A DNA stretch of 13,947 nt. Origin: a virus. Lineage: Duplodnaviria; Heunggongvirae; Uroviricota; Caudoviricetes. The notes below the pieces were generated by a model that saw only the letters and a program-made list of their open reading frames with translations, searched no databases and was not told the DNA's origin. The position numbers and the translations under genes are program-made. Where the stretch lies: the IMG/VR virus record IMGVR_UViG_641522650_000013. One strand, written 5' to 3'. Below are positions 1,321 to 6,725 of the stretch, piece after piece. The first letter of the stretch is position 1. Each line of letters opens with the position of its first letter.

Positions 1321-1701
1321 CTGAATAGATTGAGCCTAGCTCGACGGGGCGAAAAGCGGGAAGCCTTACCGCCTGGCTCAATCACAAAATAAGGCGCAGC
1401 GTAAAAGGTGACGCAATGAAAAAATTACCACCCGCCCCTTTTTTCAGGCTTAACAGAGCAGCCGAATTATTAGAAATAGATATTGATGATCTTTTGATTA
1501 TGGCGGCGGCAGAATCTATATATTTGAGCGCGTACCTTTGCGGCTACGACGGCACATTACATAGCATCGCGAGTCTTTACCGCAATTGCTCTTTATTCCC
1601 AGACGTCAAAGAAGACTGCTTATTACTTGCCGACATAATCACTGAAGTAGAGGACGAAAAAAGCTTTAAGGCAGGCGTTGTAAATCATATAGATTGCCAT
1701 G

Positions 1702-1710
1702 TGCTTGGGC
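1702..1710. repeat. IS1 target-site duplication, left copy (TGCTTGGGC)
   Basis: Identical 9-mer immediately flanks both IS1 ends. Confidence 0.9.
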
Positions 1711-1725
1711 GGTAATGACTCCAAC

Positions 1726-2229
1726 TTACTGATAGTGTTTTATGTTCAGATAATGCCCGATGACCTTGTCATGCAGCTCCACCGATTTTGAGAACGACAG
1801 TGACTTCCGTCCCAGCCTTGCCAGATGTTGTCTCAGATTCAGATTATGTCGCTCAATGCGCTGAGTGTAACGCTTGCTGATAACGTGCAGCTTTCCCTTC
1901 AGGCGTGATTCATACAGCGGCCAGCCATCCGTCATCCATACCACGACCTCAAAGGCCGACAGCAGGCTCAGAAGACGCTCCAGTGTGGCCAGAGTGCGTT
2001 CACCGAAGACGTGCGCCACAACCGTCCTCCGTATCCTGTCATACGCGTAAAACAGCCAGCGCTGACGTGATTTAGCACCGACGTAGCCCCACTGTTCGTC
2101 CATTTCAGCGCAGACAATCACATCACTGCCCGGTTGTATGCGCGAGGTTACCGACTGCGGCCTGAGTTTTTTAAGTGACGTAAAACCGTGTTGAGGCCAA
2201 CGCCCATAATGCGTGCACTGGCGCGACAT
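1726..2229 (-). CDS. insB: IS1 InsB transposase (normally expressed as InsAB' by -1 frameshift)
   Basis: 167-aa product ...[56 protein letters not shown]... matches IS1 InsB. Confidence 0.95.
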
Positions 2230-2423
2230 CCGACGCCATTCATGGCCATATCAATGATTTTCTGGTGCGTACCGGGCTGAGAGGCGGTGTAAGTGAACTG
2301 TAGTTGCCATGTTTTACGGCAATGAGAGCAGAGATAGCGCTGATGTCCGGCAGTGCTTTTGCCGTTACGCACCACGCCTTCAGTAGCGGAGCAGGAAGGA
2401 CATCTGATGGAAATGGAAGCCAC
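2148..2423 (-). CDS. insA: IS1 InsA
   Basis: 91-aa product [40 protein letters not shown]... matches IS1 InsA including the zinc-finger cysteines. Confidence 0.95.
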
Positions 2424-2478
2424 GCAAGCACCTTAAAATCACCATCATACACTAAATCAGTAAGTTGGCAGCATTACC

Positions 2479-2487
2479 TGCTTGGGC
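2479..2487. repeat. IS1 target-site duplication, right copy (TGCTTGGGC)
   Basis: Identical to 1702-1710. Confidence 0.9.
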
Positions 2488-3042
2488 TATGGCATGTTAA
2501 CGCCTCCTATATACTCGACATCGCAGGGCTTGATTCTATTGACACTCCCGCACGCATATTCAGCCCCGCACACAGAAAAAGAGAACTAGACGTAAGTGCG
2601 AATTATTATTTTTTTCTCGATTATACAAAACATGCCTTCCACGAAATATCCGTAGAGGATTTGTACATAACAAGGCCGTGGGTTGAATATATCGGCGAAT
2701 GCATGGACAAAAACCAGCCCATATACAGCCCCGAAACTCGCATAAACTTACAAGCTCTTTATGAGGATGTTAAAAACGTTGAGCACGGAAACAGAGAGCG
2801 CCACAGGCAAAAGCGCGAAATTTGCCTCTTGGCGTTGATTTATGTGAAGCGGCACTACCCAGAAGAGTGTAAAGGGAAGAACGGGAAGGAAACCAACGAA
2901 GCATGGGCGAACGCCACAATAAACCACTGGGCGCTTTTGGGGGGCGGCTATGATGAGCCATCCATAGATTACCTGAAGAAACTCATAGCCGACGCAGACA
3001 GAACACCGGAAGAACGCACCACGGCAGGGAAAAAAAGGTGAT

Positions 3043-3072
3043 AGTAAATTTTACTATCACGATAGTAAAAAA
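3043..3072. promoter_or_regulatory. Candidate operator: perfect 9-bp inverted repeat GATAGTAAA-t-TTTACTATC followed by a third direct copy of GATAGTAAA
   Basis: Read directly: GATAGTAAA at 3043-3051, its reverse complement at 3053-3061, another GATAGTAAA at 3064-3072, in the intergenic region upstream of alpA. Confidence 0.35.
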
Positions 3073-3153
3073 TACGATCATTCCTTTTTGAGCGTGCACG
3101 CCATTAAATCCCCGTAACGAAGCAACAACTATCGCTAAGAGGTTACGGGAATC

Positions 3154-3357: not shown

Positions 3358-3788
3358 TGGAAAAGAAAAACCGCCCATTACAGGCGGCTAATTCAGATAT
3401 TCGCGTATCTGATGTTACGCCCCTTACAAAATCCCTTCAAGCACCAAAGCGCACACCGAAAAAGCATCGTGCCAGAGTCTATATGCTGCGTACTGGTATA
3501 GAGGGATGGACAGAAAATGACATTCTGCGTTATTGCCGCCTTTCGTCTGGAAGGAACTACGCCAGCGAGTTAGAGCGCAGGCTTGATATTCAGCTTGAGC
3601 GTATAGACGAAAAGAACCCCGACGGGATAGGGCCACATTTACGCTATCGCTTTACCGGGCGCGGTGACGTTCTAAAAGTTATTCGGCTTGTGAACCATAA
3701 CGCCGACGCTGGCGGCTATCAGGGACTTTCTCAGCCTGAAATTGCCGACATTCTCAATCTATACCCGGACAATCTCACCGCCGCATAA
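3357..3788 (+). CDS. Hypothetical protein, 143 aa, translationally coupled to alpA
   Basis: ORF with start overlapping the alpA stop; basic N-terminus; no family recognised. Confidence 0.6.
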   Translation: MEKKNRPLQAANSDIRVSDVTPLTKSLQAPKRTPKKHRARVYMLRTGIEGWTENDILRYCRLSSGRNYASELERRLDIQLERIDEKNPDGIGPHLRYRFTGRGDVLKVIRLVNHNADAGGYQGLSQPEIADILNLYPDNLTAA

Positions 3789-3801
3789 CGGAGCCGAAAA
3801 T

Positions 3802-4419
3802 ATGACTATCGAAAAAAGCCGATTCAGTTCGGGGGCCGCCCCGCAACCCAACGTTAACACGGGAGTAATTAACGGCAACGACTTTGCCGCTATTGTTCCC
3901 GTTATTGCCGGACGCATTGGCGGGCGTGAAGCCAATATTGTGAGCGCTAAGGCGTTGCATAAAGCGCTGGGGGTGGGCCGCGACTTTACTAACTGGATTA
4001 AAGGCCGAATTGACCAGTACGGTTTTATTGCCGGAACCGATTTTATCCGTGTTGAAAATTTGAGCACGCCAAAACGGGCGAGCGCAAAAACTCGCCAGCA
4101 AATAGAGCATGATTACCTGCTATCGCTGGATATGGCTAAAGAAGTGGCAATGGTTGAACGCAACGAGCAGGGCCGCGCTATCCGCCGTTATTTCATCCAG
4201 TGCGAGGAAGAATTACAGCGTAGCGTGCCTGAAATCGCCGCCCGCTATCGTCGCCAGCTAAAAGCCCGTCTCAGTGCCGCAAACAACTTTAAGCCAATGT
4301 GCGATGCGCTGAATATGGCCCGTGCCGAGATGGGCAAAACGACGCAGCAGCGCCACTACAGCAACGAGAGCAACATGATCGCCCGTATCGTGCTGGGTGG
4401 CATGACGGCGAAGCAGTGA
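3802..4419 (+). CDS. Phage antirepressor, AntA-domain protein
   Basis: Start ATG 3802 preceded by GGAG; contains KALHKALGVGRDFTNWIKGRIDQYGFIAGTDF and LSLDMAKEVAMVERNEQGRAIRRYFIQCEE, typical AntA/antirepressor motifs. The ORF-track start at 3742 overlaps the previous gene and is less likely. Confidence 0.75.
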   Translation: MTIEKSRFSSGAAPQPNVNTGVINGNDFAAIVPVIAGRIGGREANIVSAKALHKALGVGRDFTNWIKGRIDQYGFIAGTDFIRVENLSTPKRASAKTRQQIEHDYLLSLDMAKEVAMVERNEQGRAIRRYFIQCEEELQRSVPEIAARYRRQLKARLSAANNFKPMCDALNMARAEMGKTTQQRHYSNESNMIARIVLGGMTAKQ

Positions 4420-4458
4420 GCGCAGGCAAATGGCATTACTGGCGAACCACGGGACAGC

Positions 4459-4611
4459 ATGAACGCAGCACAGCTTGAACACCTCGCCTATCTCGAAAGC
4501 ACCAATATCACGTTAATTGATATGGGCATGGAATATGAGCAGCGCAAAGGAGAACTCACCCGCCTGTCGCAACGCTGGCTCGCTAAACGTCTGGAGGTAA
4601 ACCATGCGTAA
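4459..4611 (+). CDS. Possible small ORF (50 aa)
   Basis: ATG-initiated ORF not in the track (under 60 aa); its stop overlaps the start of the next ORF (ATGCGTAA). Weak SD. Confidence 0.3.
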   Translation: MNAAQLEHLAYLESTNITLIDMGMEYEQRKGELTRLSQRWLAKRLEVNHA

Positions 4612-4786
4612 CCACAATCCGATGCCGGGAAGCCGTTACAAGGATTCGCACGGGGCTGTAGTGACCGTTGAGCGCGTCGAGCATAACCGAGTGACCTTTT
4701 ACCGCGAGGGCTATCAGTCGCCATGTGTTCAGCCTTTGGAGAGATTCGTTAATGAGTTCGTGGAGGTGCGCCGTGATACTGAATGA
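4604..4786 (+). CDS. Small hypothetical protein (60 aa)
   Basis: GGAGG 6 nt upstream of ATG 4604; product MRNHNPMPGSRYKDSHGAVVTVERVEHNRVTFYREGYQSPCVQP... resembles short conserved prophage proteins, family not confirmed. Confidence 0.5.
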   Translation: MRNHNPMPGSRYKDSHGAVVTVERVEHNRVTFYREGYQSPCVQPLERFVNEFVEVRRDTE

Positions 4787-5073
4787 ACCTGCCGCCCAGA
4801 AAGAAGCCTTTAATCTGGCTGGCCTGTTAACAAATGTTAACCCTTACAACCTTATAAAACCTGATATTGATACCGCAGCGCCCGGAGTTCCGTTACCAGT
4901 ACGCGAGGCGCTTACCCTCAACAAAAAGATGGTGAGCCGTGCACAGGAAAAACTCTTAAAGGGTTACGGTTTTATCTGGTATGACCACCTAGCAGAGAAA
5001 AGCTGTTATAGTTCAAGCGTTGCTGCAAAATCAGCAACCGGGCGTGGAAACCCGAACACACTCAGGGCGACAC

Positions 5074-5096
5074 AGACGCCGAAAGCGTCTTTTTTT
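5074..5096 (+). terminator. Rho-independent terminator (6-bp GC-rich stem AGACGC/GCGTCT, loop CGAAA, then T6)
   Basis: Read directly from the sequence; lies inside the apparent ORF 4725-5561, arguing that ORF is not one real gene. Confidence 0.55.
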
Positions 5097-5146
5097 GTGT
5101 CCGATCACTACGCACATCAAATCAGCGGCCTAGTCCGTACTGTATC

Positions 5147-5229
5147 AATGGTGGCGTTAGTGGGGCTACGTTCGCGTAGGCCGGTTTCCTTTGTGTCCGG
5201 TATTTCCACCCCTGCTAACGTCACCGCCA
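5147..5229 (+). ncRNA. Candidate structured antisense RNA (P1 C4 / P4 CI-like) upstream of the icd-like gene
   Basis: Closing stem 5149-5165 with 5206-5227 (about 14 bp, one mismatch, one bulge); inner hairpin CTACG-UUCG-CGTAG (5166-5179); second hairpin CCGG...CCGG (5181-5200) whose loop holds TCCTTTGTGT (5187-5196), perfectly complementary to ACACAAAGGA (5266-5275) across the icd-like SD. Boundaries approximate. Confidence 0.4.
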
Positions 5230-5285
5230 TTTCAGAGCGTGGAAACTCAGGCGGTGACTCCTTAAACACAAAGGAGGCTGCCGCT

Positions 5286-5541
5286 ATGCTGGCTACTACC
5301 CCTACCCAAAAACCGCAATTTATCTGGATTATCGCCGCAGTTCGCCGCGATTGCCCGACAATTACCGCCAAAATTCATCATATTGCTGCCGAGTCTGAAC
5401 GCGATGCTCGCCGTTCTCTGGTGCGCGATCACGTCTGCTTTTTTGCTGGTCGTATCCGCATGGAGGTGGTGAAGTGGCACACTGAATTTGGCCACCTGAA
5501 CAGAGGTGATATGCTCACCTCAGAACAACACAGGTGCTCCA

Positions 5542-5561
<20 letters not shown>
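5286..5561 (+). CDS. Icd-like (host cell division inhibitor-like) small protein, C-terminus replaced by IS911-derived sequence
   Basis: Strong SD AAGGAGG 8 nt upstream of ATG 5286; product [57 protein letters not shown]... resembles Icd-like proteins as I recall them. IS911 begins at 5470, so residues after ...RMEV come from the IS. Reconstructed native end is ...RMEVAHD (61 aa). Confidence 0.55.
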
Positions 5562-6710
<1,149 letters not shown>

Positions 6711-6725
6711 CCACTTCAGTGGCAC

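Follow-up and report, generated by a model that had tools for sequence, protein, structure and literature searches.

We describe a regulatory RNA module in a DNA stretch of 13,947 nucleotides from a virus of the class Caudoviricetes (IMG/VR record IMGVR_UViG_641522650_000013), referred to here as the window. Positions 5019-5277 of the window, together with the icd/kil-like gene that follows them, form with a probability of about 90% an antisense-RNA immunity switch of the P4/P1 type, composed of an IsrK/seqA leader, a C4/CI RNA and icd/kil, all located on the plus strand. Work on this system in P1/P7 and P4 goes back to the 1990s, and curated Rfam models of it exist; thus the window carries a real but ordinary copy of something already known. 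The element hosting the module is a decayed P4-like island of Escherichia coli, riddled with insertion sequences (ISs), and the RNA module is intact although the surrounding element is not. Presence of the system in enterobacterial P4-like prophages and phage-inducible chromosomal islands (PICIs) has already been published (PMC3632133, PMC10111431), and the IsrK and C4 of P4-like prophages have been recognised as the equivalents of seqA and CI, respectively (PMC3632133).

Three Rfam models match the module. The C4 antisense RNA model (RF01695) matches 5144-5231 on the plus strand over its full length (model positions 1-87 of 87) with 80.3 bits at a gathering threshold of 45 and E = 8e-15. The isrK model (RF01394) matches 5019-5095 (plus strand, 72.1 bits, gathering threshold 50), and the c4-a1b1 model (RF03163) matches 5006-5058 (plus strand, 54.2 bits in the scan at gathering threshold). 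Besides the score, the locus has the other traits of the C4 family: a compensated closing stem around two hairpins, recognition segments a' and b' complementary to downstream sites a2 and b2, of which b2 lies over the Shine-Dalgarno (SD) sequence of icd, and additional sites a1 and b1 upstream in the same transcript. The arrangement is that of P4 as well. A putative promoter is followed by seqA, an intrinsic terminator, cI, seqC, kil and, downstream, a primase operon, and kil is nested in frame in a longer eta-like open reading frame (ORF) that overlaps the end of the preceding gene. A first-pass annotation, made from the letters of the window alone, had suggested at 5074-5290 a C4/CI-type antisense RNA directed against the icd ribosome-binding site of a P4-like element; the Rfam match, the P4 layout and the covariation described below agree with it, as does the position upstream of the replication operon, where the icd/kil-like gene precedes the primase operon as in P4. 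The gene order, which it had noted as different from that of P1, is the order of P4 itself (seqA, t1, cI, seqC, kil, alpha) and not unusual. The module also extends 5' of the interval originally delimited, as both the a1/b1 leader (IsrK/seqA-like, 5019-5095) and its terminator belong to it.

In the predicted fold of the C4/CI gene (5144-5231), a closing stem of 16 base pairs (5150-5165 with 5210-5225) surrounds hairpin 1 (5166-5179), which is capped by a UUCG tetraloop, and hairpin 2 (5180-5201), which has a loop of 12 nt. The minimum free energy (MFE) of the region is -38.9 kcal/mol with z = -5.4, and none of 200 shuffled sequences folds as well. The recognition loop b' is UUUCCUUUGUGU (5185-5196), and the second recognition segment, a' (UUUCCAC, 5203-5209), occupies the unpaired 3' junction of C4. 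Further 3', at 5239-5245, lies a2 (GTGGAAA), the site targeted by a'. The target of b' is b2, ACACAAAGGAGG, at 5266-5277, which overlaps the SD AAGGAGG (5271-5277) located 8 nt 5' of the ATG at 5286. Counting two G-U pairs, the b'/b2 duplex comprises 12 base pairs with -15.0 kcal/mol and covers the SD. Within the loop, TCCTTTGTGT (5187-5196) has its sole exact reverse complement in the window at 5266-5275 (expected count 0.02), and in the exact-match test 0 of 200 shuffles gave two matches; a one-mismatch significance test of the same 10-mer was uninformative, as 41 of 200 shuffles did as well. The structural features listed by the first-pass annotation, namely the terminator, the closing stem with two hairpins, the UUCG loop and the SD-led icd gene, are thus all present where it had placed them, including the perfect 10-nt complementarity between loop and SD region.

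Homologous loci were searched for with an alignment of Icd/Kil proteins alone as query, one genome per species. By this protein criterion 46 Enterobacterales loci were found, with 40-48% protein identity to the query. In 45 of the 46 the gene is preceded by C4 and isrK at fixed spacing, and the remaining locus has just 73 nt of upstream DNA; the end of C4 is separated from the ATG by 52-54 nt. The window, a close E. coli relative, P4, the P1-like phage D6 and the 45 loci were combined into an alignment of 49 sequences, to which the counts below refer. The helices of isrK and C4 are 98% paired overall with 16 double-change pairs, and none of 500 shuffles reaches the observed score. The three C4 helices alone are 100% paired in 48 distinct sequences, with compensatory changes in 11 pairs.

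Pairing between the antisense RNA and its sites is preserved in the same manner. The a'-a2 pairing amounts to 100%, with 6 of 7 pairs compensatory, and a perfect 7-nt complement is found in 49/49 loci when searched for without the alignment. For b'-b2 the figure by alignment column is 85%, an underestimate caused by a one-column shift in a few loci; searched for without the alignment, a perfect complement of 7-11 nt that ends 8-12 nt before the ATG is recovered in all 49 loci. On the upstream side, a1-a' is 99.7% paired (6/7 pairs changed on both sides, perfect 7-nt complement in 48/49 loci) and b1-b' 96.9%. The mean length of perfect complements is 8.6 nt (b) and 7 nt (a) between cognate partners and 4.2 and 4.1 nt between non-cognate ones. 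The first-pass annotation had asked for a covariance-model search, for folding and for an alignment of homologues, and all three turned out in its favour: the stems are compensated, and the loop co-varies with the SD site.

These loci contain 7 a-types and 13 b-types in 22 combinations. Approximately 600 of 5,426 complete E. coli genomes carry a match to the stretch. The E. coli relatives L050-L053 share 92-98% identity with the window, and among these copies the three a sites (a1, a', a2) change jointly between GTGGAAA (window), GTGAGAA (L051) and TTGGAAC (L052), with b staying constant. Such joint change of the a sites looks like localized switching of immunity type. In one locus, L024 from Mangrovibacter yixingensis, a1/b1 of the leader (GTAGGAA / CTCAATGG) differ from the locus' own C4 and a2/b2 (GTGGAAA / TCTAACGG), and this locus appears from its sequence to be a recombinant with non-cognate seqA.

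The IsrK/seqA-like leader RNA (5019-5095, matched by the Rfam isrK and c4-a1b1 models) consists of two hairpins, a linker and an intrinsic terminator. Its hairpins are 85-99% paired with compensatory changes. The MFE structure of the isolated leader lacks the second Rfam hairpin (z = -1.9), and the covariation counts favour the Rfam structure instead. Site a1 (GTGGAAA, 5044-5050), found by complement search, lies in the loop of the second hairpin and is complementary to a'. Site b1 (ACACA-CU-CAGG, 5056-5067), recognised by duplex energy and alignment, is an imperfect, bulged complement of b'; its counterpart in the relative L050 is ACACA-CT-AAGG. Upstream of the leader, a putative extended -10 element, TGtTATAGT (5004-5012), was read from sequence and conservation as the analogue of P4 PLE; the motif nGnTAnAGT is invariant or nearly so in the alignment, P4 included.

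The terminator at 5074-5096, composed according to a terminator scan of a stem (5074-5090) and a T run (5090-5096), is 99.3% paired, with a GC/CG swap in 9 loci. It had been recognised correctly; it is more than the end of an upstream gene and belongs to the module as the terminator of the leader, equivalent to t1 of P4. Next to it lies the first copy of TTTGTGTCCG, an exact 10-nt direct repeat at 5094-5103 and 5190-5199, to which the earlier reading had drawn attention. The repeat does exist; we rejected its first copy as a functional b'-like specificity element, because eight of its ten bases (5094-5101) are part of the terminator tail TTTTTTTGTGTC, and P4 and D6 have exactly this tail although their b' loops bear no relation. 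This copy could in principle pair in cis with b2 (ACACAAA) in read-through transcripts, which we regard as coincidence.

The MFE structure of 5000-5300, which would represent the transcript before processing, contains an alternative hairpin (5220-5258): bases 5220-5228, from the 3' side of the C4 stem, are paired with 5250-5258, and a2 is held in the loop. This hairpin is 99.1% paired over the 49 loci, with 4 pairs changed on both sides. It may be the counterpart of the atypical terminator t4 of P4, with a similar function. The GCCA at the 3' end of the C4 stem (5226-5229) is presumably relevant for RNase P. A local hairpin that would sequester the SD (5259-5264 with 5271-5276) is not significant (z = -1.3) and is, by eye, conserved only in the window lineage and D6. 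A peculiarity of the window lineage is an insertion of 3 nt between C4 and a2 (5230-5237, CCATTTCAGAGCG versus CCAT---GAGCG elsewhere), which leaves the frame intact and, in the predicted fold, allows TTTCA to pair with some of the bases of a2.

Among named systems, P4 resembles the window most extensively. The same three Rfam elements follow each other in the same order, and in P4 they lie on one strand as isrK-like RNA (8692-8615), C4 (8507-8420) and the ATG of kil (8365); in both, 54 nt separate the end of C4 from the ATG. Sites a and b are present on both sides of C4, with b2 over the SD of a gene for a Kil/Icd-like protein of 64-65 amino acids. In both, the gene is extended upstream by an ORF in the same frame (eta, Phage_ASH; 199 codons spanning the region in P4), which is coupled to the gene before it, and a primase operon follows downstream. 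P4 carries different specificity sites: a1/a2 GTGAGAA and b1/b2 TTCACAGG, which match the loops of its own C4, as opposed to a GTGGAAA and b ACACAAAGG in the window. The start-to-start distance from isrK to C4 is 125 nt in the window, 60 nt shorter than the 185 nt of P4. The window further differs by its bulged b1, by additional AntA and DUF4222 genes between alpA and the immunity region, by the lack of sid, psu and delta among the genes found in it, and by the disruption of its copy by IS elements and nonsense codons.

The immI region of P1/P7, compared by means of the P1-like phage D6, shares the Rfam C4 family, an isrK-like a1/b1 leader upstream and a b2 over the icd SD; D6 DNA is ~70% identical to window positions 5066-5327. 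P1 C4 controls icd and ant (PMC8198154). In P1 and D6 the antirepressor follows icd as the regulated output, whereas the AntA-like gene of the window lies 5' of the promoter, and icd of the window is followed by an IS, small ORFs without antirepressor domains and the primase.

The icd/kil-like gene begins at ATG 5286. Its first 61 of 64 codons (5286-5469) are followed by an IS911-like element of the IS3 family inserted at 5470 (5470-6718; orfA from 5543, orfB 5871-6710, identified by transposase domains), and the last codons (AHD and stop) resume at 6723. The ends of the element are inverted repeats TGAAGTGG...CCACTTCA, GTGG is duplicated on both flanks, and homology to the relative L001 stops at 5460. 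Excising the IS restores a 64-aa icd ORF; with it in place a 91-aa Icd-IS fusion ORF results, and the immunity leader and icd are parted from the downstream replication operon. The identity of the gene product is supported by the NCBIfam model phage_ICD_like, which the Icd of an intact relative and P4 Kil match at 71 and 76 bits; the Icd-like protein of the window hits this model as well and can be aligned with P4 Kil.

The neighbouring genes encode an integrase, AlpA, an AntA-domain protein, a DUF4222 protein, the Icd-like protein, a TOPRIM/DUF927 primase and SSB, and they identify a P4-like integrative element. Two of them are likely pseudogenes: the AntA-domain gene (3742-4611) has a tryptophan codon changed to stop at 4417-4419 relative to L001, and the primase gene is split by an in-frame stop (9855-9857) into 447 and 482 codons of one frame. 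An IS1 transposase gene (1726-2229, minus strand) lies within a block of ~1.7 kb (~1420-3107) unmatched in L001, and a second IS3-family element (~12674-13947, plus strand) runs off the right end of the window. The Rfam int-alpA RNA (RF02996) matches the segment immediately 3' of the integrase gene (1329-1395) with 60.6 bits; its match in L001 scores 64.9 bits.

Several points weigh against the interpretation as an immunity switch. The IS911-like element, inserted 3 codons ahead of the stop of icd, and the in-frame stops in AntA and primase genes mark the element as decayed; the cis-regulatory purpose of the module is therefore largely lost in this copy, and, the operon under control being broken, C4 acts at most in trans. 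Genes sid, psu and delta were not detected in the window, which contains int, alpA and primase and at its right end enters an IS3-family element; the island may be PICI-like or another P4-related island rather than a strict P4 satellite. Site b1 is not only bulged but also weaker in the window lineage, with -8.1 kcal/mol compared to -9 to -16 in most loci. Finally, a consensus promoter scan of 4400-5600 gave no site at the scan threshold, so it is from the conserved TATAGT that we infer a constitutive leader promoter with its -10 at ~5007-5012 and a transcript start near 5019.

A different explanation would be that the region is simply protein-coding, as a gene of the Ash/Eta family or a 234-aa "Icd-like" coding sequence (CDS), and that its RNA fold is incidental. 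The frame of icd is indeed open for 591 nt 5' of ATG 5286 and crosses the IsrK-like leader, C4 and the leader downstream of it. Its Eta/"Ash"-like extension (4773-5285, delimited by the ORF list, Pfam and conservation) starts at a GTG at 4773, used by PGAP also in relatives, and overlaps the DUF4222 stop at 4784-4786; PGAP annotates the frame as a single 234-aa CDS in relatives, and Pfam Phage_ASH (PF10554), which covers amino acids 21-145 of P4 Eta, matches amino acids 95-198 (~nt 5007-5318) with 82 bits. Through leader, C4, spacer and isrK the frame is open in 45/49 loci, and indels preserve it: the differences among the isrK-to-C4 spacings (125, 140, 143, 146, 176 and 185 nt) are always multiples of three, and where C4 has lost 1 nt, the loss of another 2 nt shortly after it restores the frame. 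Codon positions tell another story. Entropies at positions 1/2/3 are 0.24/0.21/0.78 in the icd CDS, in contrast to 0.39/0.29/0.27 in isrK, 0.61/0.69/0.72 in the spacer, 0.30/0.37/0.38 in C4 and 0.65/0.50/0.46 in the leader, and variable sites among close relatives are distributed 6/8/26 in icd versus 4/7/2 in C4. Substitutions 5' of the ATG obey base-pairing rules. D6 differs from the window in keeping the RNAs without a long in-frame ORF. In P4 the frame is translated, yet the immunity factor is RNA; the sequence of CI lies within eta, Kil represents a shortened Eta, and translation of eta is coupled to that of alpA (PMC10111431). A purely protein-coding nature of the region is thus highly improbable. 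The patterns indicate that the upstream frame is kept open while its peptide is not selected, protein-level selection being limited to the last 64 codons. The first-pass annotation had regarded a conserved ORF at 4725-5561 as evidence against the RNA; since no codon-position signature exists 5' of ATG 5286, the conserved open frame is no argument against it, and frame and RNA coexist. A frame kept open fits what is proposed for P4, where ribosomes translating eta on transcripts from an upstream promoter keep termination from occurring (PMC10111431).

It is also conceivable that the short leader RNA (5019-5095) acts in trans as an activator which pairs with C4-region sequences of the read-through transcript and opens the icd ribosome-binding site, rather than C4 being mainly a repressor, as described for IsrK of the Salmonella prophage Gifsy-1 (IsrK/STnc1160). 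There, activation by the short IsrK was demonstrated experimentally, and the mechanism and homology to SeqA/CI have been given (PMC4825925). As in Gifsy-1, where the nucleotide sequence is conserved and the amino acids of the overlapping ORF are variable (PMC4825925; PMC12197685), the leader fits the isrK model with a terminator of its own and has a C4-like RNA downstream. Its a1/b1 are complementary to a'/b', so that a short RNA could titrate C4 or remodel the long transcript. Nevertheless, the layout and the downstream genes match P4, where CI represses: icd/kil and the primase operon take the place of orf45-anrP, which follows in Gifsy-1, and anrP is not found in the window. With b1 weakened in this copy as well, we consider activation of this kind unlikely, although the two modes are not mutually exclusive. 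A somewhat better, still modest chance has to be given to a functionally dead relic, in which the module has not yet been mutated while the element decays. Three IS elements in the window, the nonsense codons in AntA and primase genes and the parting of icd from the operon to be controlled speak for it. On the other hand, neither the helices nor the two downstream target sites show any defect, the module shares 97.5% identity with its counterpart in an element free of these IS insertions, and, by analogy with P1 and P4, where C4 acts in trans, immunity against incoming elements of the same type could survive the decay of the target in cis. We retain the antisense-RNA immunity switch as the preferred interpretation.

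Based on the work on P4, P1 and Gifsy-1, the switch would operate as follows. A constitutive promoter would transcribe the leader, whose first 77 nt (5019-5095) would form the IsrK/seqA-like RNA ending at the intrinsic terminator. Transcripts reading through would contain C4/CI (5144-5231), which would be cut out as a stable small RNA. In P4 and P1, C4/CI arises by RNase P-dependent processing of a longer precursor to a stable RNA of ~70-80 nt. The processed RNA would expose its two recognition segments, the loop b' (5185-5196) and the junction a' (5203-5209), and pair in trans with a2 (5239-5245) and b2 (5266-5277) on leader transcripts, occluding the SD of icd/kil. Such pairing should also cause premature termination ahead of the replication genes, as in P4, and pairing with a1/b1 should enhance the use of the leader terminator, which would amount to autoregulation of C4 synthesis. 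Ribosomes coming from the upstream alpA-antA-DUF4222 operon could translate across the open frame and override immunity. The details of P4 t1, t4 and timm follow in part the summaries in PMC10111431 and PMC4825925.

The window adds little biology to a system long characterised in P1/P7 and P4; its use lies partly in annotation. The isrK and C4 genes are overlain by PF10554 and by the CDSs that RefSeq names "ash family protein" and, at 234 aa, "Icd-like protein" (window 5007-5318; 474-1178 in L050-L053), and the legacy P4 CDS "cI gene product, transcriptional repressor" likewise lies over isrK/C4 (8330-8704 of P4, locus L002). Because this stretch shows no codon-position signature, such annotations are essentially conceptual translations of RNA genes in a merely kept-open frame: RefSeq and Pfam call the stretch protein, yet all but its last 64 codons are RNA genes.

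The persistence of an intact module in a decaying island invites the speculation, in our opinion quite unlikely to be right, that the RNA is kept for the benefit of the host or a resident helper prophage, as a stand-alone, type-specific barrier against incoming P4-like satellites with the same two-key code of a and b sites. Were this true, the specificity sites would be under diversifying, recombination-driven turnover, which is supported by the joint switching of a1, a' and a2 in nearly identical copies and by the number of a/b combinations among the 49 loci. The two recognition sites constitute a combinatorial specificity code readable from sequence, and this code could predict cross-immunity among P4-like elements.

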